Numbered from the stretch's first letter, positions 3,688 through 58,882 are shown. The stretch: 64,000 nt of DNA from Anaerolineales bacterium UBA6092 (GCA_002428565.1 DIXA01000026.1:5435-69434); one strand, 5' to 3'. A program made the numbers and translations. The notes: generated by a model from the sequence alone, not told the origin.

Positions 3688-6600
3688 GTGTTACAATTTA
3701 TGCACATGAGCCTCGCCATCCACATCTTCGGCAAGCCCAGCCTGTTGATTGATGCCACCCCGGTGCGCTTTGCCGCCCCTCCAAAAACCTTTCCTTTGCT
3801 GGCTTACTTGCTGCTGCACCGCTCGCAGCCGGTGGATCGACAGCAGATCGCTTTTGCCCTGTGGCCGGATGACCCTGAAGCCAGCGGGCGCTCCAATTTG
3901 CGCCGCCACCTGCACCACCTGCAGCGCGCCTTGCCGCCGCCCGCGCCCGGGCGCCCCTGGCTGCTGCTGGAGGGGGCAACCGTACAGTGGAATCCGCAGG
4001 CAGATTACTGGCTGGATGTAGCCGAGTTCGAGCAGGGCATTGCCCAGCCCGAAACCCTGGCCCAGGCCGTTCCGCTCTACCGCGGCGACCTGCTCGAAAC
4101 CGTGTATGATGACTGGGTTTTCTTTGAGCGCGAGCGCCTGCGCGAAGCCTGCTTGAATGCGCTTTACCAGTTGGCGGTGCAGTGCCGCGCCCGCTGCCAG
4201 TACAGCGAGGCCGCCGCCTACGCACAGCAGATCCTGAACCACGAGCCGTTCCGCGAGGATGCCCTGCGCCAGCTGATGGCGGCGCGCTACCAGGCAGGCG
4301 ATCGCGCCGGGGCGATGGCCGAATACGAGCGTTTTACCCGCCAACTGAGCGATGAGATGGATGCCGAACCCATGCCGGAAACACGCTCGCTGCATGAGAT
4401 CGTGCTCCACAACGGCCGCCTGATGGGAGAGACCACCCCGCCGCCGGTTGAAAACGCACCTGCCCAAACCCAGCCCGCGCCACCCGCTTTCGTGGGGCGG
4501 CAACCCGAGATGGCCCGGCTGGCCACATTGTGGAACCGGGCCGCCCGCGGGCGCGGCGGGCTGGTATTGTTGAGCGGAGAAGCCGGGGTAGGGAAATCGC
4601 GCCTGGTGAGCGAGATGGCCTTGTCGGTTGAAAGCCAGGGGGCGCGCCTGCTTTACGGGGCTACCCCCCCGGATGGCGAGCATCCTTACCAGGCGGTGAG
4701 CGAAGCGCTGCAGACGGTTCTGCCTATGCTGGCAGACCCCGGCGAAGACATGCAGCAATTGGCCGCCCTGGCCGCGCTGCTGCCCGAGCTGCGCCAACGC
4801 CTGCGCCTGCCCACGCTGCCCGATCTGGAGCCAGACCGGGAGAAGCTGCGCCTCTTCGACGCCATTGCCACCAGCCTGGAGAGTTTGGCCGCGCCCCGCC
4901 CACTGCTCATCGTCCTGGAAGACTTGCACTGGGCCGGGGCCTCTACCCTGGAGCTGGTGGAATTCCTGGCCCGCCGCGCCGCCAACGGCCCCCTGCTGCT
5001 GATCGCCACTTACCGCGAGGAGGAAATCCCGCGCAGCCACCCCTTGCGCGGCCTGCGCCAACGGCTGCGGGCCGAAAAGATTGCCGAACACATCGCTTTA
5101 CACTGCCTGGATGTGGCTGCCGTGAGAGCGCTGGCAGAAGATACCCACCTGCCGGGCGCTGCCGAGATGGCCCAACGCCTGCACACCGCCAGCGAGGGCA
5201 ATCCCTTATTCTTGAGCCTGCTCTTGCGGCACTGGCAAGAAACCGGCTCGTTGGCAGAGGCGCACCTGCCCCAGGATATCCGGGCAGCCATCTCGCAGCG
5301 CCTGACGCACCTCAGCCCGCTGGGACGCGCCTATGCCGAGGTGGCGGCCATCCTGGGCCTGACCTATGACGCCGAGGCCGTGCGCGAAATCGGCGGCTGG
5401 GAAGAATGCCAGGCCCTGGATGCCCTGGGCGAACTGCTGGACCGGCGCGTCTCACGCGATGTGGGGCGGCAGGATGAATATATCTTTGCCCATCACCTGG
5501 TGCAGGCCACCCTGTACCATGAGATCCCTGCCAAGAAGCGCCGCCAGCGCCACCGTCGCGCCGCCGAGGTATTGGAAGAACTGTATCCCGAGCGAGGCGA
5601 CGAGCTGGCTGGGGCTTTGGCAAAACACTACGACCTGGGCGGCGCGGCGCAGCGCGCCATCCCCTATTATCGGCGCGAGGCCCAAGGGCGCCTGGCGCTC
5701 TTTGCCGACCCCGAAGCGCTGGCCGCGCTGGACCGCGCCCTGGCATTGGCCAGCCAGGGGGCCTTCACATCGCCGCGTGACACCCTGGAGCTGCTCTTGC
5801 TGCGCGAGAGCATTTACCGCCGCCACGGCGAGCGGCCGCAGCAGAAGGCCGATCTTGAGCAGATGGAAGGGTTGGCAGCCACCCTGCAAGATCCTGCGCT
5901 TACCTGCGAGATCTTAAAGCGCCGCATCCTCTACTATCGAGGCATCGATGATTACCTCGCCGTGAAGCAGGCGGTGGATGAACTAAAGCACCAGGCGCAG
6001 GCCCTGGGCAGCCCGCTCTGGCAGACCGAAGCAGCTCTGGCAGAAGGCAATTATTACAAGCTGATCCACGATATGCCTCAAGCAATTGCCCGGCTGCAAG
6101 ATGTCTTGGCAAGCTACCAGGCGCTGCACAATTCCCCACAGCAGGTGCTATGCTGCTGCCAGCTGAGCGAGATTTATATCAACCAACGCCAGGTCGACGA
6201 AGCCGAACGCTGGGCGCAAAAAGCGCTGGCGCTTTGCAGCGGCGAAGCGCCAATCTATCACCTGCTGAATACGTTGTGGAACCTAAGCGCCAACGGGTTG
6301 ATCGCGAATGACCTGGAACGCTGCCTGGAATATGCCGGGCAACTGCTCAGCGCCGCAGAAAGGGCCAGCGACCGCACCTGGCAAGCCGCTGCCCACCGCC
6401 TGATGGGCATGGCTTACCAGCGCCAGTTCCGCATTGCCCAAGCGCGCCAGCACCTGGAAGAAGCCCTGCGCCTGTACAGCTTGATCCAAAAAACCAAGGG
6501 CCGCAGCCTGACCCTGCAAAGCCTGGGACACCTGGCCTTATCGCTGGGGCACTACCCTGCGGCAAACAGCCTTTACCAGCAGGCCCTGGAGATCGAGGAA

Positions 6601-7188
6601 CGGATGGGCTATGTGGAAAACATGGCCAACGAATGCATCAACCTGAGCTACGCGGCTTCTTTCCAGGCAGATTATGCCGCCGAGCAGAAATATGCCCAGC
6701 GGGGGGTCACGCTGGCACGGCAGGTTTCAAACCGCTACCTGGAGGCCATGGCCCTGCAAAACCTGGGGGAAGCCGAGCGCGAGCTGGGTGACCTGGCGGC
6801 AGCCCGCCGGGATTTGCACGCCGCGCTGAGCATCCTGGAAGAGCTTGCCCTTACCAAGGATCGCATCAGCGTGCTCAGCGACCTGGCGCTGGCTCACTGG
6901 CAAGCCGGCGACCTGCCCCAGGCCCTGCAATGCGCCGCAGAGATCCTCGCCTGCTATCCTGAGGTGGAGGGCCGCGATGACAACACCCAGCGCTATTTGT
7001 GGTCCGCGGCGCGCATCTGGCATGCCGCCGGGCAGGCAGAGCAGGCCGGGCAAGCCCTGGCCCAGGCCTATCACACTTACCAGCAGGCCCTGGCTGCCAT
7101 CCCCGATCCCGAATCGCGCCAGGCGTTTGCCCAAATGCTGCACAACTGCCAGATCGTCGCCGCCCAAGAACGCGGCGTGTGGGCCTAA
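3688..7188 (+). CDS. SARP/BTAD - AAA(NB-ARC-like) ATPase - TPR transcriptional regulator (AfsR-like architecture), reg1
   Basis: N-terminal winged-helix plus BTAD (FPLLAYLLLHRSQPVDRQQIAFALWPD...YRGDLL...DWVFFERERL). Walker A is LLSGEAGVGKSRL. Long TPR-like C-terminus. The real start may be ATG 3700 or 3706, because a TACAAT hexamer sits at 3692-3697. Confidence 0.85.
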   Translation: MLQFMHMSLAIHIFGKPSLLIDATPVRFAAPPKTFPLLAYLLLHRSQPVDRQQIAFALWPDDPEASGRSNLRRHLHHLQRALPPPAPGRPWLLLEGATVQWNPQADYWLDVAEFEQGIAQPETLAQAVPLYRGDLLETVYDDWVFFERERLREACLNALYQLAVQCRARCQYSEAAAYAQQILNHEPFREDALRQLMAARYQAGDRAGAMAEYERFTRQLSDEMDAEPMPETRSLHEIVLHNGRLMGETTPPPVENAPAQTQPAPPAFVGRQPEMARLATLWNRAARGRGGLVLLSGEAGVGKSRLVSEMALSVESQGARLLYGATPPDGEHPYQAVSEALQTVLPMLADPGEDMQQLAALAALLPELRQRLRLPTLPDLEPDREKLRLFDAIATSLESLAAPRPLLIVLEDLHWAGASTLELVEFLARRAANGPLLLIATYREEEIPRSHPLRGLRQRLRAEKIAEHIALHCLDVAAVRALAEDTHLPGAAEMAQRLHTASEGNPLFLSLLLRHWQETGSLAEAHLPQDIRAAISQRLTHLSPLGRAYAEVAAILGLTYDAEAVREIGGWEECQALDALGELLDRRVSRDVGRQDEYIFAHHLVQATLYHEIPAKKRRQRHRRAAEVLEELYPERGDELAGALAKHYDLGGAAQRAIPYYRREAQGRLALFADPEALAALDRALALASQGAFTSPRDTLELLLLRESIYRRHGERPQQKADLEQMEGLAATLQDPALTCEILKRRILYYRGIDDYLAVKQAVDELKHQAQALGSPLWQTEAALAEGNYYKLIHDMPQAIARLQDVLASYQALHNSPQQVLCCCQLSEIYINQRQVDEAERWAQKALALCSGEAPIYHLLNTLWNLSANGLIANDLERCLEYAGQLLSAAERASDRTWQAAAHRLMGMAYQRQFRIAQARQHLEEALRLYSLIQKTKGRSLTLQSLGHLALSLGHYPAANSLYQQALEIEERMGYVENMANECINLSYAASFQADYAAEQKYAQRGVTLARQVSNRYLEAMALQNLGEAERELGDLAAARRDLHAALSILEELALTKDRISVLSDLALAHWQAGDLPQALQCAAEILACYPEVEGRDDNTQRYLWSAARIWHAAGQAEQAGQALAQAYHTYQQALAAIPDPESRQAFAQMLHNCQIVAAQERGVWA

Positions 7189-7211
7189 GGTAGCCCCACA
7201 GTAAAAATTGT

Positions 7212-7269
7212 CGCCAAAAATGGGTTATGTGGGGGTTGCTTTGCACCCCCACATAACCCATTTTTGGCG
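7212..7269 (+). terminator. 24-bp perfect-stem hairpin after reg1
   Basis: cgccaaaaatgggttatgtggggg ... cccccacataacccatttttggcg followed by tttt. Lies 24 nt after the reg1 stop. Confidence 0.45.
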
Positions 7270-7340
7270 TTTTCTAAACAGGCTTTTTTGCGGCTTTCGC
7301 GAAAAAAGGCCAAACTTGAGGGGAAATCAATCCAAAATTG

Positions 7341-7370
7341 GACGCTTTCTGGACGCGCCATCCGTACAAT
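7341..7370 (+). promoter_or_regulatory. SARP-box-like promoter of small ORF sp1
   Basis: tGGACGC-tttc-tGGACGC-gccatccg-TACAAT. Two heptamer direct repeats at 11-bp periodicity, with the proximal repeat 8 bp from a -10 hexamer. The ATG at 7382 is only 11 nt after the -10, so the mRNA would be nearly leaderless. Confidence 0.5.
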
Positions 7371-7381
7371 AGGGGCAACGT

Positions 7382-7612
7382 ATGGATGGCGCAAACATTA
7401 CCTCCCCGCAACACACTTTCATCGTCCGCCTGTGGGCCAACGCCCCAGCGGCCAACGCGCGGCAGTGGCGCGGTTCGGTAGAGCACGTCGCTTCGGGGCA
7501 GCGGTTCTACTTTACCTCGCTAGGAGACCTGGAGGGTTTCATTGCGCGGCAGTTGAAGTCTTCATCCGCTCATGCCAAAGATCCATTCCCCGTCCAAGGA
7601 GGCAGCCCCTAA
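7382..7612 (+). CDS. small conserved hypothetical protein sp1 (FIVRLW...WRG...SGQ...L..FI motif)
   Basis: 76-aa ORF. Aligns by eye with the ORFs at 58623-58841 and 50570-50680, which occupy the same position after a regulator. Its own SARP-box promoter lies upstream. Confidence 0.6.
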   Translation: MDGANITSPQHTFIVRLWANAPAANARQWRGSVEHVASGQRFYFTSLGDLEGFIARQLKSSSAHAKDPFPVQGGSP

Positions 7613-7706: not shown

Positions 7707-8777
7707 ATGCAGCATAAAAAAATCACCCTCATCAGCACCCTGATCATCATCCTCTTCCTGGGCGTCACCGCAGCCGCCGCCCAAACCGGCAGCCAGCCCA
7801 ACAACCCGCAGGGCGCCTTGCACACCAACTTCACCTACCAGGGCTATGTGACCGACCAGGCCGGCGCACCGCTCCACGACGAATGCGACATCCGATTTGG
7901 CCTGTGGGATGCCATCTCGGACGGCACCCAGATTGGCGCGTACGATGATAACAACAATGGCGTTCAAATCAGCGACGGCTACTTCACCGTCTCGGTCAAC
8001 GATGGCAACGAGTTCGGCAGCACAGCCTTCAATGGCGATGCGCGCTACTTGAGCGTTAGCTTTTCTTGCACCGATTTCCAAGAGACGCTTTCGCCGCGCC
8101 AGGCGCTCACCGCGGTGCCGTATGCGGTATATGCCCTGAACATCCCCGAGCACAACCACCTGGGCGAGGTGTGGCAGGGTGCCGCCCCCGGCCTCACCGG
8201 GCTGTCCATCATCAACGAGAGCATTGCCGGAGTGGGTCTGTTTGTAGCCGGCCCCGGCGGTGAAACCGGCCGCGCCATCGCCGCTTCGGGCGGCATCTAC
8301 AGCAACGCGGACTCTGAGCTGTATCTCAGCCCGCACACAGCCGTGCAAATGATGAACAATGATCTGACCTTTACATTCACTTCTTATGGCAGAGTCAAGG
8401 CTGTGCCCCCCAGCTCGGATGGAGCCTCCCGGTACATTTCCATCCCAGTGTCTACCTTTGGCACGCTATATGGGACGGACGTGTACGTCAAATCCATGGA
8501 GATCTGCTACCAGATCACCAATACAGGCCCGGCTTTCATCACCAGCGTGGGCATGTACCAGAACAACAATACAAACGCGATTACTCTCCTGGAAGACAAC
8601 ACCGACCGCAGCAGCACCACGCTGGAATGCTTCACCGTCACCGCGGCTGACCGCCTGCCAATCGAGAACTCGAGCTTTGTGCAGATCGTGCTCGACTCGG
8701 ACGGGGCCGATGCCGGCGAAGACGGCGTGGTCATCGCCACCGTCAAGCTGACCCTGACCAATGCTTCGGGCCATTAA
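7707..8777 (+). CDS. secreted tail-fibre-like or adhesin-like protein
   Basis: ATG at 7707 follows gaaagga. Signal peptide MQHKKITLISTLIIILFLGVTAAAAQ. Motifs FTYQGYVTD...FGLWDA...LSPRQALTAVPYAVYA and EHNHLGEVWQG, as seen in fibre-like surface proteins (from memory). Confidence 0.7.
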   Translation: MQHKKITLISTLIIILFLGVTAAAAQTGSQPNNPQGALHTNFTYQGYVTDQAGAPLHDECDIRFGLWDAISDGTQIGAYDDNNNGVQISDGYFTVSVNDGNEFGSTAFNGDARYLSVSFSCTDFQETLSPRQALTAVPYAVYALNIPEHNHLGEVWQGAAPGLTGLSIINESIAGVGLFVAGPGGETGRAIAASGGIYSNADSELYLSPHTAVQMMNNDLTFTFTSYGRVKAVPPSSDGASRYISIPVSTFGTLYGTDVYVKSMEICYQITNTGPAFITSVGMYQNNNTNAITLLEDNTDRSSTTLECFTVTAADRLPIENSSFVQIVLDSDGADAGEDGVVIATVKLTLTNASGH

Positions 8778-8793
8778 CCCAAAGGAGCCCACC

Positions 8794-9093
8794 ATGAAAC
8801 AATTTCCCAGGCGAACGCTCTTGCTCCTCCTGCTGTGCATCTTCTTGCTGCTGCTGGGAACCGGTGCAGCCTATGCCGGAGTGACCGCAGCCGAGATCCC
8901 CTGGTGGACGGTTGACGGCGGCGGCGGGCGCAGCACTTCCACCCACCTTGTGCTGAACGGCAGCATCGGCCAGTTTGATGCCGGAAGCATGTCCAGCAGC
9001 CACACCTATCTCTATGGCGGCTACTGGGTGCCGGGCGGCGAGCCAGGCGAAACAATCTACCGGGTGTTCCTGCCGCTGACCACCAAGCAGTAG
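8794..9093 (+). CDS. small secreted protein with duplicated Gly/Ser motif and C-terminal FLPLTTKQ tail
   Basis: Signal peptide MKQFPRRTLLLLLLCIFLLLLGTGAAYA. Half-repeats are GGGGRSTSTHLVLNGSIGQFDAG and SMSSSHTYLYGGYW. Ends in VFLPLTTKQ. Confidence 0.7.
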   Translation: MKQFPRRTLLLLLLCIFLLLLGTGAAYAGVTAAEIPWWTVDGGGGRSTSTHLVLNGSIGQFDAGSMSSSHTYLYGGYWVPGGEPGETIYRVFLPLTTKQ

Positions 9094-9113
9094 AAAGCCC
9101 TACCCCCCAACCC

Positions 9114-9156
9114 AGGAGTTTTGGGTGCACAAAGCGCACCCAAAACTCCTGTTTTT
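9114..9156 (+). terminator. Rho-independent terminator
   Basis: aggagttttgggtgc / acaaagc / gcacccaaaactcct followed by gttttt. Confidence 0.6.
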
Positions 9157-16159: not shown

Positions 16160-16801
16160 TTATAGATGCATCTCCTTCTCCAGGCGAAAGGCAGCTGGTA
16201 AAAGTTCACCATATCCCTGCAGACTTTCTCGCAGGCGCAGGCGGGCGCGAGCCAGGCGGCTCTTGACCGTGCCCAACGGCACGCGCACAACACTGGCCGC
16301 TTCACGGTAGTTCATGCCTAAAACATCCACCAGCACAACCATAGTGCGGAAGTCTATGGGCAGGGCGTTCAGGCAGCGCTGGATGGCGCGTTCGAGTTCA
16401 GCCGCCTCAAATTGATCTTCCGGCAATAAACCCGGATCGGCCAACCAGGGCGGAGTTTCTATTTCCTCGCCATCATCATTGGCAGGCTCAAGCGCCACCA
16501 TAGGATGGCGCTTTTGGCGGCGCAGTTCATCGTAACAGGCATTGGTAACAATGCGCATCAGCCAGGCTCTGAGGGAGCCGCCGCGAAAATGATGCATGCT
16601 GCGATAGGCCGAACAGAAAGCCTCTTGTGTGGCGTCGTCGGCAAGTTCATGGTTGCCGAGAATACGCAGGGCAACGTTGAAAAGAGAATCCTGATGGGTT
16701 AAGACAAGATGGTTGAAAGAGTCCAGGTCGCCGGGCTGGGCATCAAGGATAAGCATCGGATTTGTGGAGAGTACCTGTTCTTGATAGATTAACTGATCCA
16801 T
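16160..16801 (-). CDS. ECF-type RNA polymerase sigma-70 family factor
   Basis: Region 2 is FNHLVLTHQDSLFNVALRILGNHELADDATQEAF...LRAWLMRIVTNACYDELRR. Region 4 is NYREAASVVRVPLGTVKSRLARARLRL. ATG 16801 (MDQLIYQ) is preferred, because the upstream ORF extension runs through the palindromic repeat. Confidence 0.85.
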   Translation of the reverse strand: MDQLIYQEQVLSTNPMLILDAQPGDLDSFNHLVLTHQDSLFNVALRILGNHELADDATQEAFCSAYRSMHHFRGGSLRAWLMRIVTNACYDELRRQKRHPMVALEPANDDGEEIETPPWLADPGLLPEDQFEAAELERAIQRCLNALPIDFRTMVVLVDVLGMNYREAASVVRVPLGTVKSRLARARLRLRESLQGYGELLPAAFRLEKEMHL

Positions 16802-16862
16802 TTTGTGACCATTTTGCTGAGTCGATATGGAGTTCCTCACAACTGCAGCAGCACTTGTTGGA

Positions 16863-16951
16863 ACTTTAGAACCAATCCGGAAATTGAGGGAGAGGTGGGT
16901 GTTTGGCCGGGCGTAGCCCGGCCAAACACCCACACCCCCAGAATTTTCGGA
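16863..16951. repeat. about 85-bp quasi-palindromic repeat, copy 2 (inverted), in the sigma-gene leader
   Basis: By eye, the reverse complement matches 15738-15826 at most positions. Lies between the SARP-box promoter (16967-16996) and the sigma start codon. Confidence 0.7.
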
Positions 16952-16966
16952 TAGATACTTAGTTTA

Positions 16967-16996
16967 AGTATAAGGATCTAACGTCTCAAAAGCGTC
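16967..16996 (-). promoter_or_regulatory. SARP-box-like promoter upstream of the ECF sigma gene
   Basis: Minus strand reads GTGACGC-tttt-GAGACGT-tagatcct-TATACT. Spacing is the same as in the other four boxes. Confidence 0.45.
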
Positions 16997-17051
16997 ACAT
17001 ACGCCACAATACCGATTCTCGTCAGGGCAATTGCATCTTTTCGATCGTCTC

Positions 17052-18731
17052 TCACCGGAAAATCAAAGGCAAGAGAACAGTGTGGGTGTACACAGGTGGT
17101 TCAGTCTCTAGCGCCAGAATGCTGGCCGCCCATAAGATGCAATCGGGCGAGTTATTGTCTCCGAGCGGATCGTTGGAGATGGTGGTGGTAGCGTCGGGTT
17201 CGACAATCAAGCCGCTCACATCGAATCTCAATGTGGCCCAAAAATCGCCGTCCACCCCATTGAATACACCGTTGGCGATATTCTGACCCTCAAAGGAAAT
17301 GCTGCCATCGTCCCACTGCGTCTGCCCGTCTCCAATGAGATAAGTGATGTGGACCTGTGCAACAGGCTGATCGGCCGTAAAGGGGCCCAGGAGATCTGAA
17401 AAGGTACTGGTCACCAGGTCAAGGGTCACCGCGCCATCATGAATGATCACGGTGCGGAAAAGACCAGGAGCTCTGTAAATCACTACCAGTGATGCACCTT
17501 GCGAGTCGTTGCCACCCGCCAGGTAACTCGGCAGTCCGCTGATCGTGTAATCTCCATTGCCGTCTACCAGGCTGGTTACCTCAGCCCGGTAAACAAAGTT
17601 GGCTGGCGCACCCCAGCAGGTATCTCCTGAGGTGCCAATACGCTGCCCGCTCACGGTATTCCCATCGAACTGCACGTTGGTATACACGTCCGAGCCGCCC
17701 AGAGTGGCCCAGTAAAGGAAGGCTCGCTCCACTTTGCTGTTAACAGGGACACCCGAGAGGTTGATCGTCCCCTGCCCGATTCCGCGCAGGCCCACGCCGG
17801 CTGAGGTCACGTCTCCAAACAGTGTTTGATGGAAGGATTCGGACATCTGGTTGCTCGTTTGCGGGGCGGCAGCCGTTACGGAAAAAATAGTGGCGACCCA
17901 CAACAGGCAGTCTGTCTGGCTGGGGTCGCTCGGATCGCTGTTGCTCAACGTGGTCGCCGCGCTGCTGCCGCTCGTCAGGCTGGTCACATCAAATGTGGGC
18001 GAATCCCAATACAATCCATCTTCTTCGGAGAATGCCCCGCTCGCCAGTAGCGTTTCGTTGAAGGTGGCGTTGTCTCCATCCCACTCGGCCTGCCCATCGC
18101 CCACCAGATAGGTGACCTGCGCATTGTCTACGGGAGAACTGGCTGTAAACCCGCGGATGGTGTTGGTATAACTTGTGGGATCAAAATTGAGGGCCACCGC
18201 GCCATCATTGATCACAATGGTGGTCAGCGGGGCAGTGCTCTGACGGTAGACCACTACCAGGGATGCCCCCTGAGAGTCATTGCCTCCAGCCAGGTTGCCT
18301 GGCAGCCCGGCTATTGTATAGATTCCGTTACCGCCCACCAGATTGGTTACATTGGCGCGGTACACAAAATTATTCTGTACACCCCAACAAGTGTCACCCG
18401 TAGTGCCGATTAACTGTCCGGCAGCGGGCTGGCCGTTCAGGGTTGGCTGCATGTACGTGTTGGCGAAGCCCAGCGTTGCCCAATAAAGATAGGCCTGGTA
18501 AATGCTGGCTCCGATCGGAACGCCGGTCAGGTTGATCTGCCCGCTGCCAACCCCGCGCAGGCCCACCCCTGCATCCGTTACACCGCCATACAGGGTAAAT
18601 ACCTGAAACTGCCCCAGAGCGTTATTTCCGCTTGAAATCTGCTGTGCTGCTGCCAAAGGCGCATGCCCAAGCAGGGCAATCAACAGAGATAGCCCTGCAA
18701 CAATCGTTAGCCAATGATTTAATCGTTTCAT
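17052..18731 (-). CDS. secreted protein made of two tandem ~270-aa homologous modules (possibly DUF3344-like); C-terminal LLPLIFR tail
   Basis: Signal peptide MKRLNHWLTIVAGLSLLIALLGHAPLAAAQ. Both halves carry GVGLRG.G.G.INL.GVP...YLYWATLG...GDTCWG...NFVYRA.VT.LV.GNG.YTI.GLP..LAGGNDSQGASLVV.YR. Ends in VLLPLIFR. Confidence 0.75.
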   Translation of the reverse strand: MKRLNHWLTIVAGLSLLIALLGHAPLAAAQQISSGNNALGQFQVFTLYGGVTDAGVGLRGVGSGQINLTGVPIGASIYQAYLYWATLGFANTYMQPTLNGQPAAGQLIGTTGDTCWGVQNNFVYRANVTNLVGGNGIYTIAGLPGNLAGGNDSQGASLVVVYRQSTAPLTTIVINDGAVALNFDPTSYTNTIRGFTASSPVDNAQVTYLVGDGQAEWDGDNATFNETLLASGAFSEEDGLYWDSPTFDVTSLTSGSSAATTLSNSDPSDPSQTDCLLWVATIFSVTAAAPQTSNQMSESFHQTLFGDVTSAGVGLRGIGQGTINLSGVPVNSKVERAFLYWATLGGSDVYTNVQFDGNTVSGQRIGTSGDTCWGAPANFVYRAEVTSLVDGNGDYTISGLPSYLAGGNDSQGASLVVIYRAPGLFRTVIIHDGAVTLDLVTSTFSDLLGPFTADQPVAQVHITYLIGDGQTQWDDGSISFEGQNIANGVFNGVDGDFWATLRFDVSGLIVEPDATTTISNDPLGDNNSPDCILWAASILALETEPPVYTHTVLLPLIFR

Positions 18732-18783
18732 CTCATTTTCTCCTTATGCTTGGGGGTGCTGTTAGAGCCAGATAGATGTTTAT

Positions 18784-19620
18784 CTACTTATCAATGAGGG
18801 AAAGGTCAGGGGGTGATGAAGAAACAGGTCGGGCGATAATGATCAGGCGGTATGCATTGCCGTCCGGCGGCCAGCACGTTACCAGGGTTAACCGTTCGTC
18901 AGCCGTGGGGTAGATGTACTGTGCATTCGCCTGGCGGATCTCTACCGTTTGGCCGTAATCTTCCAGGATCAATTTTTGTTCCACGCGATAGACACGCTCT
19001 TGGCTGGCAGTATACAGCGTGATCAGATCCCCCACTGCAAGGTCGATTAGATTCTCAAATACTCTGCCACGGATATTATGATGACCATCCAGCACCGTGT
19101 TTCCCGCCACGCCCACAGGCGCCGAGGTCTTGAGCCAACCGGCGGCAAAATGATCGGGCACATCCCAGATGTTCACCGGCTGACCATTGCGGGTTTCGGT
19201 GTGCCAGCCCACTGTTTCTACCGGCGCATCCAGCCCGATCGCCTCGATCACCAGGCGCGTTGGCGTTCTGTCTTCATCGGGCTGGGCCGTCTCAACAGGT
19301 TCGCTGATCTGGCTGGTAGGGTTACTGCTGATAGCTGTGCTGGCGACCTCCAGGACAAAAGCGAGTGTCTCAGGTGTGCTGGTGGGTGATGGAACCACAA
19401 ATACCGTTGGAGCGGGTTCGAAACTATCAGAACCATCAGATTCTCCGGTAGCTAACAAAAATTCGACCATCTCGGGAGAAACGAGCAGGACAGGTTGCGT
19501 ACTTGCCGGTGTTTCACTGGGTTTAAGGCTGGCTGAAGAAACGTAGCTCACGATGGATATCGCCAGCAATAACCCAACCACCAGGGTTACGTTTGCAGCA
19601 TGGCGTAGATTCGTGTGCAT
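18784..19620 (-). CDS. sortase family transpeptidase (membrane-anchored)
   Basis: N-terminal TM helix. Sortase fold motifs are NTVLDGHHN (His), LTLVTCWP (TLxTC Cys) and YRLIIIARP (Arg). Confidence 0.8.
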   Translation of the reverse strand: MHTNLRHAANVTLVVGLLLAISIVSYVSSASLKPSETPASTQPVLLVSPEMVEFLLATGESDGSDSFEPAPTVFVVPSPTSTPETLAFVLEVASTAISSNPTSQISEPVETAQPDEDRTPTRLVIEAIGLDAPVETVGWHTETRNGQPVNIWDVPDHFAAGWLKTSAPVGVAGNTVLDGHHNIRGRVFENLIDLAVGDLITLYTASQERVYRVEQKLILEDYGQTVEIRQANAQYIYPTADERLTLVTCWPPDGNAYRLIIIARPVSSSPPDLSLIDK

Positions 19621-19626
19621 GCGGTA

Positions 19627-22578
19627 TCACCTTTCAGGTGTGTTCTGAATGACGATTGGCAGATAGATCTGGCTGGCCCACGGCAGGATGTTCCGGTTTA
19701 GCCTGAGGGCCGGGTCTCCTAAAAGCGTAAAGGTATCCAGCAAGTCGAGATGCTGGCCGGTAGCAGCCAGAGACAATTTGCCGCCCCAGGCAGCCTGCCC
19801 CACAGTGAGCGTCGTAGCACTCAGCGGGTCGCTGAAAACAACTTGAAAGAAACCCTCGTCTAAGCTGTTGTGACCGGTGCTGACTCCCAGGCCGGTTGCG
19901 CCCCAGGTAGCGACAGCGCCTGCGCCATCCAGGGTAAGCAATCCTTCATCCAGGGTAGGCTCAGGCCTGTGGAACGCGCTGGTAAAGCAAGTCATCTCGA
20001 TCACGATCGGCCAGCGGCGGTCATTGTGCAGCACGGGCAAATCGCCCAGGTCAAGAAATCGCTCCAGGGCCCATTGTTGCCACGATGAATGACCGGCATA
20101 GTGGATCAGCAATGCGCCGGTGTTCCAACTATTCAACACGGCCTGGCGGGTGGTCGTAATCGTTGTGGTGGATGGTGTGAAATAAATCCGCTGTGCTATG
20201 AAAGGCGGAGTCACATAAGCCGTAGCCAGCATCTCTGACGCAGCCGCAAAGTTACCCGCCTCATCGGCGTTGTCGGCCACAAAAGTCACCTTCTGGTTCC
20301 AACCACCCAGAACAGGATTGGTTTCATATTGCACAATTTTATCTACCACGGCTTGCGTCTCGGTCAATGTTTTGACCGGCAGGCGGCCGATCAGCATATC
20401 GGGCAGCGCGTCTTGCCCGTCCACCGTCACATAGCGATTATCGGCAGCCGTTTCGCCTGCCCATGGATCTACGTTGGCCAGGTAAGGCGGGATGAGCGTG
20501 GGCGGCGATTCGATGCGGTATTGCCTGGGGTCAAAGCTCCCATCGCCGACCAGCACCACATAGACGGGAGGTAAAGTCCAGGCGGCGTAAGCATACGCCA
20601 GGTAAGCGCGGATGGCTGCCGGGTCAGGCCGCCCATCGCCGTAGGCAGCATAGATGGCTTGTACATCTTCAACCGCCACGGTCAGCCCTTGCGCCTGGCG
20701 CAGACTGATCAAACTGTCCAGTGCAGGCATGAAATCTGCCGGTGCGATCAAAACATAGTCAGCGCCGGCAAAGTCGCCGCCCGTTTGCAACGCTTGCGCC
20801 GGGCGCATTGCAACCGGGTACAGCAATCCACTTTCCGTTGTCAGCATGTAGCGATGGGACCGGCCATCCCACTCGCCCCCCAATGGATCGCCGAATGTAA
20901 TCGTGTTCTCGGTCGTAACCACGCCGGTCAGGCGCAGTGGAAGACCAGGGTCCGTGATGTCGTAAACGCGCAGTCCAATGGTGGAACTGAATGCCAGCGT
21001 ATACGCGTGCGGCGCCGGCTGACCGCTGAAGGTGACCGAGTGACCAAAAGGAGCACTTCCACGCGCCGCGCGGATTGAAAAGGCATCCAGCCAGGCGCCC
21101 TCAATGCTCACACCCGGTATGCCGGGCAGCGTCAGGGTGAGGGTGTTGGCGCCACCGTGCAAGGTACCGGGGAGGATGGGCAGCGTGGCTGTGGTCGGTT
21201 GCTTACCATCCCAAACCAGGCTGCCTACCGACACGCCGTTGAGATCTACGTCCACTCGATGGTCGGGGGCAGCGGCGAGGTCGGTGTAGCCAATCAGCCA
21301 CACGGTCAGGGTAGCCGGCTGCGTCGCCTCCAGCGGGGGCAGGTTGATCGAATAGGAGGCGGTTGAGTGGCCAGGGCGTTTCAGATCATCCCATGTCCAG
21401 TGGTCGCCATCGCGCCCTGGAGGAATGAACCCACAAAAACAATCCGGGGTATACCACCGATTTTCCTCGGCCGTCTCTTCGATCCAGGCAATCCCGGCCG
21501 GTAGACCGAGCGGGGCGGCCGGGCGGTCTTGGATACGCAGGCCGGGCGTATCACCTTGCCAAAGGAAGTAGATGTCGGTAGACGTCCACCGGCTGAAGCG
21601 CGGTTCGGCATAAAAAAGCAGGCGTTCACCCGGCTCAAAGCGGTTATCCTCATCGCCGTCCCATTCGGTCGCTATCTCGGTTCCGGCGCGAGATAGATGT
21701 AAAGCGTGCGGGTCGGTACTCGCCACAGGAAAACCCATCTCCGTCAGGGCTGCATACGTGATCGCAGTTAAGCCAGGCGAAGCGACCTCAATGATCCAGG
21801 CCGATCCGACCTCGTTAGGATTTGATGTTGGGATTATGGGCCTTACAGGCCGAACTTGCTCTGGGTTGATGACCATCGAGCGCAGCACGGTTAACATTGG
21901 GTCGGTCGACACAGCCCAAGGCTGGCTGGCAACCTCTCCTGCAAAAGTCAGCGCCACGCGCACATAGGTCGTCAGGCGCAGGTGAGTCTGGGGAGAGTCG
22001 CCGACCAGGCGGGCCGGGTAGAACACCAACCGTGCCAGGGTTACGCCGCGCACCACGCCAGCAGGCTCAAGTCTGACAGGACTATCTACGCTGCTTTGAG
22101 CCAGTTGAACCGAGGCGGTGGCTGAAAGGTCGCCCGCTGCCGAAAAGGCGCCTCCCACGGGAAGGCCGGACGAATCCCGTTGGATGCCTTCAGGGAACGG
22201 TGCAAGCGCCAACGGGCCGGGCACAGATCGATCTGTCTCTTCGACCAAAACCACATGCAGGGTTGGAAGCGCCCCAGGCGGCACAGCCACCAACACGGAA
22301 GTGAACGGCAGCCGCGGCGCGCCAGGCTGGGCGGTTTGCGAAGTACCGGGCAGCCGCACATCCGTGCTCCCATCAGAGAGCAGCACCATGTTCGCCTCAG
22401 GGACGCGCCAATCTACCAGCAGGCCATCGGGTGTGACGACCACAACCGGGTCCACAGAGAGTGCTGGCGGCAAAGCCGATGCTTTGCCGCCAGCGATACC
22501 AGTAAGCGCGCTTCCCAAAACGATCAGGCAGGCTAACAACCGGTTCAGGGTTGAGCGCGTCCTCTTTTGCTTGGCCAT
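19627..22578 (-). CDS. peptidase C25 (gingipain-like) family protein; secreted; C-terminal IYLPIVIQNTPER tail
   Basis: ADYVLIAP..F...L..L...R..QGLTV..V....IY...GDGRPD..AIR.YL, LLIHYAGHSSWQQW (His) and IVIEMTCFTSAF (Cys). Has a signal peptide. Confidence 0.8.
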   Translation of the reverse strand: MAKQKRTRSTLNRLLACLIVLGSALTGIAGGKASALPPALSVDPVVVVTPDGLLVDWRVPEANMVLLSDGSTDVRLPGTSQTAQPGAPRLPFTSVLVAVPPGALPTLHVVLVEETDRSVPGPLALAPFPEGIQRDSSGLPVGGAFSAAGDLSATASVQLAQSSVDSPVRLEPAGVVRGVTLARLVFYPARLVGDSPQTHLRLTTYVRVALTFAGEVASQPWAVSTDPMLTVLRSMVINPEQVRPVRPIIPTSNPNEVGSAWIIEVASPGLTAITYAALTEMGFPVASTDPHALHLSRAGTEIATEWDGDEDNRFEPGERLLFYAEPRFSRWTSTDIYFLWQGDTPGLRIQDRPAAPLGLPAGIAWIEETAEENRWYTPDCFCGFIPPGRDGDHWTWDDLKRPGHSTASYSINLPPLEATQPATLTVWLIGYTDLAAAPDHRVDVDLNGVSVGSLVWDGKQPTTATLPILPGTLHGGANTLTLTLPGIPGVSIEGAWLDAFSIRAARGSAPFGHSVTFSGQPAPHAYTLAFSSTIGLRVYDITDPGLPLRLTGVVTTENTITFGDPLGGEWDGRSHRYMLTTESGLLYPVAMRPAQALQTGGDFAGADYVLIAPADFMPALDSLISLRQAQGLTVAVEDVQAIYAAYGDGRPDPAAIRAYLAYAYAAWTLPPVYVVLVGDGSFDPRQYRIESPPTLIPPYLANVDPWAGETAADNRYVTVDGQDALPDMLIGRLPVKTLTETQAVVDKIVQYETNPVLGGWNQKVTFVADNADEAGNFAAASEMLATAYVTPPFIAQRIYFTPSTTTITTTRQAVLNSWNTGALLIHYAGHSSWQQWALERFLDLGDLPVLHNDRRWPIVIEMTCFTSAFHRPEPTLDEGLLTLDGAGAVATWGATGLGVSTGHNSLDEGFFQVVFSDPLSATTLTVGQAAWGGKLSLAATGQHLDLLDTFTLLGDPALRLNRNILPWASQIYLPIVIQNTPER

Positions 22579-22640: not shown

Positions 22641-23753
22641 TTACTTTCCCAAGAGGGGAAGATAAAGCTGGTACAGGTAAGGTTGCATCAGAGCAGTAAC
22701 CGACACATTGTGAATCTGTTCCTGCCCTTGGGTATCCACATCGACCAGCCAGTAATACCATGAACCAGGGTACGGCACGGTGTCCATGTAGGCGTAAGTC
22801 GCGCCCGTGCTGCCCTGAGGGGCTGCCGGCTCAAAGTGGATCAGGCTGGCCTGCCCCAGATCATCCACACTGGCGCGGTAGAGGTTGAAGCCAAAGTTAT
22901 CCACCTCTAGCGCAGTGGCCCACTCTAAGTTCACCTGTGGGTTGATCCAGCGGACGGCCCGGAAGTAAAGCAATTCCACCGCGGTGGGGATGCAGATGGG
23001 ACGGGTGATAGTGTTTTGGTCCATCGTCACGGCAGCATCTTGCACCAGGGCCCGGCCAGTCAAGTTTGCACCGGTCGCCAGGCTGATGCTCGTCTGCGCC
23101 AGAATATTGCCTGCAAACAAACTGTTCGTGGCAAGAGTCGCAGAGCTGCCAACCCGCCACCACACATAGCAGGGTTCACCACCACTGGAAAGAACGACAT
23201 TGGCACCGCCTGTGGTGATGAGTGTGCCCGCCGATTTGAAAATCCACACATCTTCGGCGGCGCCATTGAGGGTGAGTACTCCCGACAACTCAAAGTTATC
23301 TGCACAATAGACGCCTGGCACGAGGGTTAAGGTTGCCAGATCCTGAGTCCCGATATAGGTCGTAGTGCACGCCTGGCTGCTAAGCACACCGAACGCGCCG
23401 ACCAGGTCGGTTTTCGCTGTGGTCAGCAGGGTGGGTGAAACTACTGAACCGGCTGGCCCGGTCGCATCCACGGCGTAGATCGTGCCCGTGACGATATCGG
23501 TGAGCCCTAAACCGGTGTAGTTGCTGCCGGCGGCTGGACTCAAGCCAACATCCCCGCTGATGGCAGAAGGATTGAGGTTTGTGATGGCCGTTGCGGCTAG
23601 AATCGCAAAGCTATCTGCCTTACCGAGCGGCGGCGAGAAGGCTGCAGGTGCGGCTGTTGCAGGAACGGGTCCAGAAAACAAGGCGATGATGATGAGTAGG
23701 CTGGCAAGTCGAGTGACATGCCGGGGAAGGATCGTATTAAGCATGCGGAACAT
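22641..23753 (-). CDS. DUF3494 (ice-binding-like fold) secreted protein with a C-terminal beta-sandwich-like domain and LYLPLLGK tail
   Basis: FAILAATAITNLNPSAISGDVGLSP...LVPGVYCADNFELSGVLTLNGAAEDVWIFKSAGTLITT...VWWRVGSSATLATNSLFAGNILAQTSISLATGANLTGRAL. This is the classic DUF3494 pattern, recalled from memory. Confidence 0.75.
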   Translation of the reverse strand: MFRMLNTILPRHVTRLASLLIIIALFSGPVPATAAPAAFSPPLGKADSFAILAATAITNLNPSAISGDVGLSPAAGSNYTGLGLTDIVTGTIYAVDATGPAGSVVSPTLLTTAKTDLVGAFGVLSSQACTTTYIGTQDLATLTLVPGVYCADNFELSGVLTLNGAAEDVWIFKSAGTLITTGGANVVLSSGGEPCYVWWRVGSSATLATNSLFAGNILAQTSISLATGANLTGRALVQDAAVTMDQNTITRPICIPTAVELLYFRAVRWINPQVNLEWATALEVDNFGFNLYRASVDDLGQASLIHFEPAAPQGSTGATYAYMDTVPYPGSWYYWLVDVDTQGQEQIHNVSVTALMQPYLYQLYLPLLGK

Positions 23754-32258: not shown

Positions 32259-33203
32259 ATGTATGATTTAGTTATGAAACTCATCCTGCGCAAATATCGC
32301 ACCGAGTCCGATGGCGAAAAAATCCGCCAGTTCCTGCGCGAAGTCTTCCTGGCGAACGACCGCCGCGAAATCAGTTGGCCGCTTTACCGCTGGGATTACT
32401 GGCGTTGGCACGTCAACGAGAATATCTTCAAATTTGATCTTTCGGCTGCGATTTTCCTGTGGGAAACGCCAGATGGCCGCCTGGCCGCTGTGCTTAACCC
32501 CGATGGGCCAGGTGAAGCCTTTTTGCAGGTGCATCCTGAATTTCACACCCCAGAACTCGAAGTGGAAATGCTTTCAACAGCAGAAACACAATTCGCGACC
32601 ACCCAGGCGGAGGGACGCCAACGCCTGGTGGTTTGGGCGCACGAGAACGACCTGCTGCGGCAAGATGTGCTGAAGCGGCGCGGTTACGCAAAGAGTCAGT
32701 GGCTTCCCGAACACCAGCGCCGCCGAGCGATGAGCCAGCCCATCCCCGAAATCCCCACGCCTGATGGTTACATCCTGCGCACCCTGGGCGGTGTGGACGA
32801 GCATCCTGCGCGCAGTTGGGTCTCGTGGAAAGCCTTCCATCCAGACGAACCAGACGAGAAATATGAGGGCTGGGACTGGTACGCCAACGTCCAGCGCGCC
32901 CCGCTCTACCGCCGCGACCTGGATCTGGTGGCTGCCGCCCCCAACGGTGAGTTTGCCGCCTTTGGCACGCTCTGGTTCGACGAGGTCACCCGCGCCGCCG
33001 CCTTTGAGCCGGTTGGCACGCACCCCAACCACCAGCGCAAGGGGTTGGGCAAAGCCCTTATGGCAGAGGGGCTGCGCCGTGTGCGCGATCTGGGGGCGAC
33101 ACTCTGCACGGTTGTTTCCTATTCCCAGGCCGCCGGGGCGCTCTACGCTTCACTCGGTTTTACTAAATATGACTTATCCGAACCCTGGGTCAAAGAGTGG
33201 TAA
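32259..33203 (+). CDS. GNAT family N-acetyltransferase
   Basis: HPNHQRKGLGKALMAEGLRRVRDLGATLCTVVSYSQAAGALYASLGF (acetyl-CoA binding motif A). The upstream ORF extension is Pro-rich and non-coding in appearance. Confidence 0.75.
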   Translation: MYDLVMKLILRKYRTESDGEKIRQFLREVFLANDRREISWPLYRWDYWRWHVNENIFKFDLSAAIFLWETPDGRLAAVLNPDGPGEAFLQVHPEFHTPELEVEMLSTAETQFATTQAEGRQRLVVWAHENDLLRQDVLKRRGYAKSQWLPEHQRRRAMSQPIPEIPTPDGYILRTLGGVDEHPARSWVSWKAFHPDEPDEKYEGWDWYANVQRAPLYRRDLDLVAAAPNGEFAAFGTLWFDEVTRAAAFEPVGTHPNHQRKGLGKALMAEGLRRVRDLGATLCTVVSYSQAAGALYASLGFTKYDLSEPWVKEW

Positions 33204-33225
33204 GATTAGAACCTTGAGGCCCACC

Positions 33226-36200: not shown

Positions 36201-37347
36201 TAACTCGGCCGAGATGGGCATTGTGCTGGTCGACCTGGGTAGCGACGGTTACCAACTTTTAGATGAAAACCGTTTTAACCGGCTGGTGGAAAACCAACAG
36301 CTCAACCCTGCCATGCAACACATGTTCGGGTATTCGGCTGAAGAATTGCAGCAGATCTCCATCACCGATCTGATTTATCCCGATGATCAAGGCATAGACC
36401 GCCAGGAGTTTCGCCAAGTCCTGACCGGCGAAATCGATTCGTTTCACAGTGAAAAACGCTTCGTGCGCAAGGATGGCAGTGTTTTCTGGGGCCGCCTGAC
36501 TGATTCGCTGGCGCGCACCGTGGATGGCACACCACGCATGGTGATTGGGATTATCGAAGATATTACAGAGGAAAGGCTTTCTGCCGAGCGTTTGGCCGCT
36601 CAGGAAGCCGAACACCGCAAGCAACTGGAACAGCGCATTGCCGAGCGTACCGATGATTTGAATCTCGCTAACGAACGCCTGCGTGAAAAAGCCGCCCAGG
36701 ATGCTGTGACCGCTGAGCGCACCCGCCTGGCGCGCGACCTGCACGACGCCGTGACGCAGACCCTGTTCTCGACCACCCTGATTGCCGATGTACTGCCCGA
36801 TATTTGGGCGATGAACCCCGACGAAGGCCGCCGCCGCCTGGAAGAAGTGCGCCAACTGACGCGCGGCGCCCTGGCCGAAATGCGCACCCTGCTGGTCGAA
36901 CTGCGCCCCAATGCCCTGGTGGAAGTGCCACTGCCGACCCTTTTACGCCAACTGACCGAAGCCCTGGCCGGGCGCTCACGCATAAACATCCAACTCAGCG
37001 CTGAGGGCGACGCTGGCAGTGCCAGCGCACGCAAACTCCCCCCCGATGTGCAGGTGGGCCTGTACCGCCTGGCGCAAGAAGCGCTGAACAATATCGTCAA
37101 ACACGCCAAAGCTAGCCAGGCTGTCGTTACCCTGCGCTACAACCCAGAATCCGTGCGTCTGACGGTAATCGACAACGGCACTGGCTTCGACCCATCCACC
37201 GTCACCGCCGACCACCTCGGCCTGAAAATCATGCGCGAGCGCGCCGAAACGATTGGCGCGAAATTGAACATTTACAGCGAACCCGGCGAGGGAACACAAA
37301 TCTCGGTCATTTGGGAACACAAACCTTCTGACCGGCAAGGTTCTTAG
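33226..37347 (+). CDS. hybrid-architecture sensor histidine kinase: signal peptide, Reg_prop beta-propeller repeats, Y_Y_Y domain, TM, 2 PAS, HisKA_3, HATPase_c
   Basis: Many G.LWIGT..GLNRYD repeats. Y_Y_Y-like YAYKLEGFDKDWV...YTNLPGGDYTFRVRA. HisKA_3 box ERTRLARDLHDAVTQTLF. ATPase region NIVKHAKAS...DNGTGF...GLKIMRERA. Confidence 0.85.
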   Translation: MRRTLSLIVLSLLFFATFYPAAAQSAGPTFAPGAHLRFEHITIDDGLSQNAGLALLQDRQGYLWIGTQDGLNRYNGYTLTQFKHDPDNPTSLSHSSIIALYEDRAGFLWIGTWGGGLNRYDPASGQFTRYTPDPASISHPIVTDIVQDGQGVYWVATLGGLERFDPTTNVFTHFRHSPDNITSLSSDVISVLLPAPGGKLWVGTGAFSAPGAGLNLFDPTTGNAQRLAQTGDCLASANIADLLPAPDGGLWIAYGGYGVAGGGIDHYNPQTGACSHFDNAQAFGNQIADNNFTDLAFDRDGALWMAGWSGGLWRMAPDGQFTGIHHNPADPESLSSDNTFTVLPDRSGVIWIGTLSAGINKLNLDTLQFRTYRHDASNPKSLPSNHVSAFAETSDGMIWLGSIENGLVRFDPASGEFSAYRSDPANPASISGDMVLTIYADSGDTLWVGTLGSGLNHFDPRTQTFTRYQNDPADPQSLLENQVTNLIRDRAGRLWVGTFAGLSRLDPGATGFINYPMPAPPVSFGLVGDELWAGTWGGGIYRLDLVDPASLDPATAVFSSLKNDPANPNSLSNDGVWTILQTPDGMVWLGTQAGLNRYDPQTGQFKIYTEKTGLPNTSIMGILRDAQGFLWLTTNHGVARFDPQAETFQVYEKSDGLQGNEFNSNAYFQARNGNFYVGGVNGFSIFDPLNLRQNELPPPVVITDFSVFNTPQPFNPTESIRLNYDQNFISFEFAALDFHDPHRNQYAYKLEGFDKDWVQAGTRNYVSYTNLPGGDYTFRVRAANSDGIWNESGATLNLTVTPPLWQTRPFQLGLLLGVVALVTVAFQWRVRAVRQQNAHLQKMVGEQRRVEAELRQSEARFKAMFDNAAVGVTLMSLDRRIVQINPKVTEITGYSAEEMYTINPSDMVLEPDRYLDRDLFLELAAGKRDQYLMEKRYVRKDGSIFWGRVNFALVRGENEQPLYIVGIIEDITDEKESARILAESEERFRTLYNSAEMGIVLVDLGSDGYQLLDENRFNRLVENQQLNPAMQHMFGYSAEELQQISITDLIYPDDQGIDRQEFRQVLTGEIDSFHSEKRFVRKDGSVFWGRLTDSLARTVDGTPRMVIGIIEDITEERLSAERLAAQEAEHRKQLEQRIAERTDDLNLANERLREKAAQDAVTAERTRLARDLHDAVTQTLFSTTLIADVLPDIWAMNPDEGRRRLEEVRQLTRGALAEMRTLLVELRPNALVEVPLPTLLRQLTEALAGRSRINIQLSAEGDAGSASARKLPPDVQVGLYRLAQEALNNIVKHAKASQAVVTLRYNPESVRLTVIDNGTGFDPSTVTADHLGLKIMRERAETIGAKLNIYSEPGEGTQISVIWEHKPSDRQGS

Positions 37348-58841: not shown

Positions 58842-58882
58842 ATTGGCCTCCAATAAACAAAAACTGGTACCGTATCGATACC

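Follow-up and report, generated by a model that had tools for sequence, protein, structure and literature searches.

We analyzed a 64-kb stretch of DNA from Anaerolineales bacterium UBA6092 (GCA_002428565.1 DIXA01000026.1:5435-69434), called the window below, in which two genes for large SARP-type regulators, reg1 and reg2, are each followed by a small gene, named sp1 and sp2 here. The SARP gene, a promoter with repeats at 11-nt spacing and the small gene sp very probably form a conserved regulatory cassette. SARPs have been studied almost solely in actinomycetes, as switches of antibiotic clusters; here the SARP, an operator of 11-bp repeats and sp form a conserved module in at least four other phyla, with surface and secreted proteins as its proposed targets. 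SARP regulation itself is known. What is new is a widely conserved small SARP partner outside the actinomycetes. From its genomic context, and by analogy with AfsS of Streptomyces, we tentatively read sp as the conserved first target of its SARP, a target that may act back on the activator.

Two SARP-sp pairs in the window

The initial annotation had proposed two small open reading frames (ORFs), and both were found with the positions and sequences that it gave (Table 1). The span with which it headed them, 3688-7612, covers the first pair (reg1 and sp1) alone. The TTG start of sp2 is preceded by GGAGG 5 nt upstream and is also the start in the public gene call for the identical sequence. The two proteins align, as had been claimed: BLASTP gives an E value of 3e-9 with 28% identity over an aligned stretch of about 52 residues. 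The alignment is also significant in the shuffle check that had been named for it, since the Smith-Waterman score of 77 was reached by none of 20,000 shuffles (mean 22, standard deviation 4; Gumbel p about 1e-8). Between sp1 or sp2 and their orthologues (P0011 and P0149 for sp2), differences fall most often on the third codon position, then on the first and least on the second. This third-position bias indicates that both genes are coding and under purifying selection. Judged from these comparisons, sp1 and sp2 are real, homologous genes. A six-frame motif scan and a scan with the hidden Markov model (HMM) of the family found exactly two sp copies in the window, sp1 and sp2, and phmmer found exactly two BTAD regulators, which gives two 1:1 pairs. 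Each sp lies directly 3' of a paralogous regulator gene, as first described, with 193 nt between the reg1 stop and the sp1 start and 103 nt between the reg2 stop and the sp2 start.

The regulators reg1 and reg2 are paralogous over their full length (27% identity, E 7e-70). Both score well above the Pfam cut-off of 22.1 for BTAD (PF03704; reg1 1.9e-22, 80.7 bits; reg2 7.2e-27, 95.0 bits) and match AAA_16 (reg1 4.1e-29, 102.7 bits; reg2 3.4e-25, 89.9 bits), and TPR_12, TPR_2 and TPR_10 are found above cut-off. The OmpR-type winged helix is marginal, as Trans_reg_C scores 26.2 bits in reg1, exactly the cut-off of 26.2, and 18.0 bits, below it, in reg2; the two proteins can be aligned to each other across this region. 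A Walker A motif, GEAGVGKS/T, is present, and the NB-ARC model matches faintly. By their BTAD, ATPase and TPR domains reg1 and reg2 are large (AfsR-like) SARPs. Orthologues of reg1 are found directly 5' of sp in L001-L006, L012, L014, L016 and other loci.

Some further features of the two regulators were observed. A 2026 preprint describes an 'HD' activation-switch motif in the nucleotide-binding domain of AfsR, whose mutation makes AfsR autoactive. This motif is canonical in reg2 (FSHD, in YCFSHDKIR) and reads FAHH in reg1 (YIFAHHLVQ). Of 22 related large SARPs with a located motif, 18 have the F-x-H-H form (L001-L005 and others); by analogy with AfsR, the HH form of reg1 may reflect altered switching behaviour. 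The C-terminal segment of reg2, approximately residues 1206-1289 (window 58945-59200), is missing from reg1 and has below-cut-off matches to DUF1670, DeoR, HTH_11 and LexA_DNA_bind, so that it may be another DNA-binding domain of this regulator. An anti-phage defence system of the STAND/Avs type was considered in view of the ATPase-TPR architecture, and rejected: PADLOC yields a generic TPR match and a marginal mad8 match (E 0.005-0.009) on the regulators, and no match for sp or its downstream genes.

SARP genes as constant neighbours of sp

The family of sp was collected with a six-sequence profile searched against 1.84 billion representative proteins (cut-off E <= 1e-3). Loci were obtained from a scan of species-representative genomes, confined to the pattern WRGSVEH[VI]x[ST] (80 loci), from a metagenome scan with another pattern (29 additional loci) and from exact-protein look-ups, which added further loci. 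The genome scan found sp in Chloroflexota (Anaerolineales, Chloroflexia, Ardenticatenaceae and Thermoflexales), Eremiobacterota/Vulcanimicrobiota, Verrucomicrobiia, Lysobacterales and Burkholderiales. Single queries gave little: a word-index homologue search with sp1 alone returned 4 matches, a metagenome scan with sp2 as sole query gave no confirmed locus, and tblastn against plasmids with sp1 and one Lysobacter sp gave no match.

Sufficient DNA upstream of sp was available in 88 loci, which cover Chloroflexota, Eremiobacterota, Pseudomonadota and Verrucomicrobiota. A BTAD N-terminal ORF ends less than 1.5 kb upstream of sp, on the same strand, in 62 of them, and a further 16 have a BTAD ORF within 5 kb in another arrangement. 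The background in the same loci, taken from DNA more than 6 kb from sp, is 3 BTAD N-terminal ORFs per 460 kb. Loci chosen free of the search pattern have the same pairing. The co-occurrence proposed as a check in the initial annotation is thus present, sp homologues adjoining BTAD regulators in many other genomes. The constant neighbour of sp is a SARP, rather than the downstream genes. In Chloroflexota, Eremiobacterota and some other groups this SARP is large (about 1,170 aa), and in Lysobacterales it is a protein of 310-440 aa with Trans_reg_C and BTAD only. Therefore, the winged-helix-BTAD unit is the sole module common to all partners.

Repeats and promoters upstream of sp

The promoter region of sp1 reads TGGACGC, TTTC, TGGACGC, 8 nt (GCCATCCG), TACAAT, 11 nt and the ATG. 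The box is the sole match in the whole window, even with two mismatches permitted, and is invariant in the orthologous loci L001-L004 despite their diverged flanks. The form YGGACG-N5-YGGACG precedes sp in some 25 loci of several phyla and is seldom met outside these sites in 1.55 Mb. Published SARP sites are 11-bp heptamer units over the -35 region, the proximal site lying 8 bp before the -10 (PMC10972967, PMC11301090). In its layout the sp1 promoter is a SARP box of this description. No sigma-70-type pair of -35 and -10 elements was found in the upstream region of either sp1 or sp2.

In 67 of 114 loci the 150 nt before sp contain an exact 7-mer repeated at 11-nt spacing, compared with 1.3% of 1,672 control windows; other spacings upstream of sp occur in 0-4 of the 114. 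The repeat is TGGACGC in loci of the reg1 type, GTGATGN in Lysobacterales (four copies at 11-nt spacing), GAAACGC in the WRGQVQH type (two or three copies), CTGAGAG in L109 and L113, and AGACA for sp2. Its sequence co-varies with the subfamily of sp and regulator. These predicted operators of five subfamilies are directly testable.

The initial annotation gave each sp its own SARP-box promoter. This holds strongly for sp1, where both the box and TACAAT are conserved while the flanks have diverged, and tentatively for sp2. The putative box of sp2 is conserved in L086, and in L088, which is more distant, both of its copies read AGATAA, a concerted change, with TACACT as the hexamer. In at least 10 sp loci the ATG lies 6-11 nt past the -10 hexamer, so that the sp mRNA probably has little or no leader; the sp1 transcript is predicted to be of this kind, starting at about 7377. 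The sp copies of Lysobacterales have a 5' untranslated region (UTR) of approximately 25-40 nt.

A hairpin is found between regulator and sp in both pairs. In L088 the pairing of the reg2 hairpin is kept by a compensatory change from A-U to C-G. Transcripts of reg2 would end at this hairpin, while those of sp2 would start inside it (about 58876, which gives a 35-nt leader), would not contain its 5' arm and could so escape termination. The hairpin after reg1 is likely a terminator that splits reg1 from sp1 transcription; its T tail is short, which kept it from being called in a simple terminator scan. With about 25 nearly perfect base pairs, this hairpin exceeds a typical terminator in strength and may be a repeat element. 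In some loci (L082 8042-8066, L083 7995-8018, L066/L067 near 5660-6370) TGGACG boxes either stand back to back on the two strands or precede the regulator gene, which suggests divergent SARP-dependent promoters.

The sp family

At E <= 1e-3 the sp family comprises at least 3,814 clusters (50% identity), of which 214 also pass E <= 1e-10. Nearly all members are 58-110 aa long among the 150 clusters listed. Their consensus is (Q/E)HLF(I/V)VR(I/L)WxE...WRGSVEHVxSGQRxYFxSLxDLxDFI, and F13, R16, W18, E20, W29, R30, G31 and F53 are conserved in at least 90%. Wherever members are named, the name is 'hypothetical protein', and a function for sp derived from its context would touch many genomes. No model of Pfam, NCBIfam, PADLOC or PHROGs matched sp, a profile search of PDB sequences gave nothing significant (best E 0.16), and no paper describing the family was found in the literature; the first placement of sp outside all named families agrees with these searches.

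The AlphaFold2 model of sp1, made with 115 sequences, has a mean predicted local distance difference test score (pLDDT) of 78.7, with strands at 13-20, 28-35 and 40-44, a helix at 47-65, a core whose blocks reach 93-96 and a disordered tail. sp is thus predicted to be a folded beta-beta-beta-alpha domain. Foldseek searches with the model found nothing significant in PDB (best E 0.9) or BFVD (best E 0.13), and resemblances to Cren7, MBD, dsRBD, RF2 and DUF2188 were non-significant and were not used. The protein is about neutral in charge and has no signal peptide, which suggests that it is cytoplasmic. A precursor of a ribosomally synthesized and post-translationally modified peptide was rejected as a reading of sp, as its C-terminal tail shows neither conservation nor order, its core is predicted to fold with confidence and no maturase genes are found after it. 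A faint DUF6504 match in L089 belongs to an unrelated neighbour gene, not to sp.

Several variants of sp were found. Tandem sp-sp proteins or loci (P0033, P0143; L090, L103) hint that sp works as a dimer; an AlphaFold2 model of the tandem protein P0033 from its single sequence (pLDDT 67, predicted template modelling score 0.48) is too poor to judge dimer packing. Three clusters (P0053, P0065 and P0094) carry a C-terminal globin domain, and the sp-globin genes at L119 4616-5305 and L122 8001-8666 each stand directly after a large SARP gene. The proteobacterial form has an extra conserved helix, GIDAQQRFWERIS. A divergent subfamily (KRKVFILRLWARGKDEPVWIGE; KRKVFILRLWARGKDEPVWIGEVQDV) is devoid of the WRG motif (L092, L095, L096, L098, L101, L104 and L112), and its members are preceded by a 472-aa protein of no known function and a small membrane protein.

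Genes downstream of sp

The first co-directional proteins after sp, 32 in total, fall into 22 unrelated BLAST clusters. They include FG-GAP proteins, an M4 peptidase with TSP3 repeats, glycosyltransferases, beta-propellers, DUF4352, a papain-like peptidase, GNAT and BrnT. In several loci no co-directional gene follows and sp stands alone, and the gene after the sp-globin gene of L122 is on the opposite strand. The downstream genes are the variable and dispensable part of the cassette; as they are unrelated or absent, a role of sp as chaperone or immunity factor for any one downstream protein is disfavoured.

In the window, sp had been described as the leading gene of an operon that encodes secreted proteins. 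This fits both loci: no terminator was found between sp and the next gene at either of them, and the first operon closes at the terminator at 9113-9151. Homologues of the 356-aa gene 1 follow sp in L001-L003, L005, L016 and L018. Gene 2 has homologues in L002 (11420-11710), L003 (11405-11695), L004 (4127-4417), L005 (15332-15655), L013 and L016 (9400-9708); these encode proteins of 96-110 aa with a signal peptide and no family, and recur in sp operons of the reg1 type. A product identical to the giant protein encoded after sp2 has FG-GAP and FG-GAP_3 matches on record. The giant protein ends in a hydrophobic, basic tail after PLPSYG, which might be a sorting signal.

A conserved operon of small SARP, sp and peptidases was observed in Lysobacterales and some Burkholderiales (L027-L081; for example L040 8454-17454). 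Preceded by four GTGATG repeats at 11-nt spacing, it runs from the small SARP and sp to a protein of 1,400-1,900 aa, in which trypsin, Amidase_2, trypsin and Peptidase_C70 domains are combined; genes for two unknown proteins of approximately 325 and 280 aa come next, and an S8 subtilase is last. The cassette lies before the giant multi-peptidase gene in cultured strains of Lysobacter, Luteimonas, Pseudoxanthomonas and Marilutibacter, which makes genetics feasible.

Possible functions of sp

We propose that sp1 and sp2 belong to two paralogous copies of a widespread cassette of three parts. The first would be a SARP-type activator, either large (winged helix-BTAD, ATPase and TPR) or small. The second would be a promoter with the heptamers of this activator at 11-nt spacing, placed 8 nt before the -10 and without a usable -35. 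The third would be sp as the first product, often from a leaderless mRNA, followed by variable, dispensable and mostly secreted proteins. The SARP would bind the repeats and activate sp; sp would in turn bind its own SARP at the winged-helix-BTAD module shared by large and small partners, and tune promoter occupancy. This would close a feedback loop, in which sp could be either a co-activator or an anti-activator.

That sp acts back on its SARP is suggested by four lines of evidence. The adjacency of the two genes is kept across phyla and with both regulator architectures, one genome contains two diverged sp-SARP pairs, fusions of sp to a sensor domain exist, and the AfsR/AfsS precedent fits. 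In that precedent, AfsS is directly activated by AfsR, the product of the adjacent gene, binds AfsR and raises the affinity of AfsR for its promoter (PMC10832544). Of the functions raised for sp in the initial annotation, an adaptor linked to the regulator fits best.

Several points weigh against this interpretation. Adjacency could reflect cis-regulatory dependence only, a target lying beside its regulator. AfsS is built of repeats and is seemingly unrelated to sp in sequence, which leaves a purely functional analogy. In 10 of the 88 loci no SARP was found within reach of sp, and the divergent subfamily devoid of WRG has neither a SARP nor 11-nt repeats in the 2-3 kb available. In L008, L010 and L089 sp is not the first gene past the box, and the sp2 promoter is based on three sequences, two of them near-identical, and is tentative. 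Finally, the sample is redundant by kinship, about 50 Lysobacterales loci being orthologous, so that the counts overstate independent events, and the genome scan was restricted by its search pattern. If sp does bind its SARP, AfsS-AfsR would be one case of a general principle met by unrelated small proteins.

A bolder form of this proposal, which we regard as doubtful, makes sp the obligate small subunit of a two-protein switch. Docked on the winged-helix-BTAD module of its own SARP at the 11-bp repeats, sp would determine how strongly, or in which direction, the promoter responds. Joint divergence of sp, SARP and operator would keep paralogous cassettes apart, and a fused sensor, as in sp-globin, would pass its signal straight to the switch. 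AfsR/AfsS-like logic would then be general to SARPs across phyla, not a peculiarity of Streptomyces.

Alternatively, sp may be a downstream relay, induced by the SARP and acting on RNA polymerase or a sigma factor, on another transcription factor or on nucleic acid to control distant genes. We consider this less likely than a feedback partner, although AfsS itself was long regarded as a relay (PMC10972967) and some features of sp would suit an independent effector. Some loci have no SARP-proximal target other than sp, and sp can be joined to a sensor globin. The predicted beta-sheet is exposed and bears the conserved R16, W18, W29 and R30, and the model has a weak, non-significant Foldseek likeness to the small beta-sheet nucleic-acid binders Cren7, MBD and dsRBD (E about 1-3). 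However, the core of sp is about neutral instead of basic and has no significant structural or sequence match. Moreover, two strongly diverged sp paralogues (26% identity) in one genome, each with its own diverged SARP, fit pair-specific partners better than a generic target, and AfsS, the sole precedent resolved by experiment, acts through its SARP.

Improbable, in our view, is a service of sp to the downstream products as chaperone, secretion adaptor or immunity factor, even though sp often precedes secreted or surface proteins, in the window and in many other loci, sometimes with overlap of stop and start. Examples are the FG-GAP proteins, a thermolysin-like peptidase and the large trypsin, Amidase_2 and Peptidase_C70 protein of Lysobacterales. 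The 22 clusters of downstream proteins include cytoplasmic-type enzymes (GNAT, glycosyltransferases, BrnT), and those of the window have ordinary N-terminal signal sequences. sp also exists with no co-directional gene after it and as the sp-globin fusion, and its conserved neighbour is the regulator. The secretion chaperone named among the initial suggestions is disfavoured for the same reason, the downstream genes being unrelated or absent.

It is very improbable that sp matters mainly in cis, as a short leaderless first ORF that loads ribosomes and stabilizes or couples a long mRNA, the protein itself being of minor importance. The short distance from -10 to ATG noted above, and a stop of sp that overlaps or abuts the next start in several loci, are what such a role would predict. 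However, a specific fold and near-invariant residues are kept in thousands of clusters, and the third-position bias of divergence denotes selection on the protein. The Lysobacterales copies, with their longer 5' UTRs and added conserved helix, and the monocistronic and fused forms also oppose it. The chance that the similarity of sp1 and sp2 is accidental, or that the ORFs are not genes, is negligible, since small size and the non-ATG start of sp2 are all that favour this, the family size and the shuffle test already refute it, and the BLASTP similarity, the public gene call and the codon-position bias also oppose it.

Comparison with known systems

The cassette resembles AfsR/AfsS in that a large SARP (winged helix-BTAD, NB-ARC-type ATPase and TPR) stands beside a small gene of about 60-80 codons, whose promoter has two direct repeats 8 bp upstream of the -10 (PMC10832544, PMC11301090, PMC10972967). 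In both systems the small gene adjoins the SARP gene and carries the candidate operator, and the small protein has no recognizable DNA-binding domain. The initial annotation had cited AfsR/AfsS as an architectural precedent, and as architecture it is apt. However, AfsS consists of two to five 12-residue repeats, which are needed for AfsR binding (PMC10832544), and sp has none: self-alignment of its N-terminal with its C-terminal part scores 23 for sp1 and 21 for sp2, the shuffle background being 22. By this lack of 12-residue repeats sp is not a member of the AfsS family, and no Pfam or NCBIfam model matches it. While AfsS binds AfsR in Streptomyces, binding of sp to its SARP is a proposal made here. 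Other differences are that the model predicts a folded beta-beta-beta-alpha domain for sp, that sp also pairs with small SARPs devoid of ATPase and TPR, and that operons for secreted proteins usually begin with it. Its carriers belong to Chloroflexota, Eremiobacterota, Pseudomonadota and Verrucomicrobiota, not to the actinomycete sets of literature surveys. Global SARPs were called exclusive to Streptomyces in a recent structural paper (PMC11301090), and a 2026 survey, confined to the AfsR-like regulators of Actinomycetota, does not mention an sp-like partner.

Pathway-specific SARPs (ActII-ORF4, DnrI and RedD, and the large PolY and PimR) share the domain architecture and the operator logic, in which 11-bp heptamer units replace the -35 and the proximal repeat is 8 bp from the -10. 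They differ in their targets, which here would be a small protein and surface or secreted proteins instead of biosynthetic gene clusters, and in the repeats, as TGGACGC, GTGATG, AGACA, GAAACGC and CTGAGAG contrast with the TCGAGXX type of Streptomyces. Small partners that depend on an activator, bind it and inhibit it are also known, namely PspA for PspF and TraM for TraR. Neither is related to sp in sequence or fold, and both are inhibitors, whereas the effect of sp could be of either sign.

Other features of the window

Table 1. Positions of the two SARP-sp pairs, their predicted control elements and the downstream genes in the window
Feature	Position	Strand	Description
reg1, large SARP-type regulator	3688-7188	+	1166 aa; winged helix (marginal), BTAD, AAA_16 ATPase, TPR
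Long hairpin after reg1, likely terminator	7212-7269	+	followed by GUUUUC; -48.9 kcal/mol, z -10, 0/200 shuffles as stable
SARP-box-like operator of sp1	7339-7356	+	TGGACGC-TTTC-TGGACGC, heptamers 11 nt apart
Putative -10 hexamer of sp1	7365-7370	+	TACAAT; read from sequence, conserved in orthologues
sp1	7382-7612	+	76 aa; ATG at 7382, stop ends 7612; family HMM E 3e-29
Downstream gene 1 of the sp1 operon	7707-8777	+	356 aa; N-terminal signal-like hydrophobic segment; no Pfam family
Downstream gene 2 of the sp1 operon	8761-9093	+	110 aa; signal-like N-terminus, conserved small secreted protein
Predicted intrinsic terminator ending the sp1 operon	9113-9151	+	16-bp stem and T run; -30 kcal/mol, z -7.1
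Giant FG-GAP repeat surface protein	50934-58601	-	2555 aa; starts 21 nt past the sp2 stop; own GGAGG
sp2	58623-58841	-	72 aa; TTG at 58841, stop 58623-58625; family HMM E 2.5e-15
Hairpin and T run after reg2, likely reg2 terminator	58861-58887	-	12 bp; -15.2 kcal/mol, z -4.7
Putative -10 of sp2	58883-58888	-	TAAACT; 8 nt past the proximal repeat, overlaps the 5' arm of the hairpin
Putative SARP box of sp2	58897-58914	-	GAGACAA-N4-AAGACAG, AGACA at 11-nt spacing
reg2, large SARP-type regulator	58945-62817	-	1290 aa; BTAD, AAA_16, TPR_12; extra C-terminal HTH-like segment

Between the two pairs, the region 16160-22578 (minus strand) encodes an extracytoplasmic function (ECF)-type sigma factor (16160-16933), a DUF3344 protein, a sortase (18784-19620) and a 983-aa Peptidase_C25 protein, and looks like a separate surface-protein cluster. 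An ice-binding-like protein is encoded at 22641-23753. A hybrid sensor kinase of 1527 aa with Reg_prop, Y_Y_Y, PAS and HisKA_3 domains (32764-37347) is also present, followed by a LuxR-type response regulator (37389-38018).

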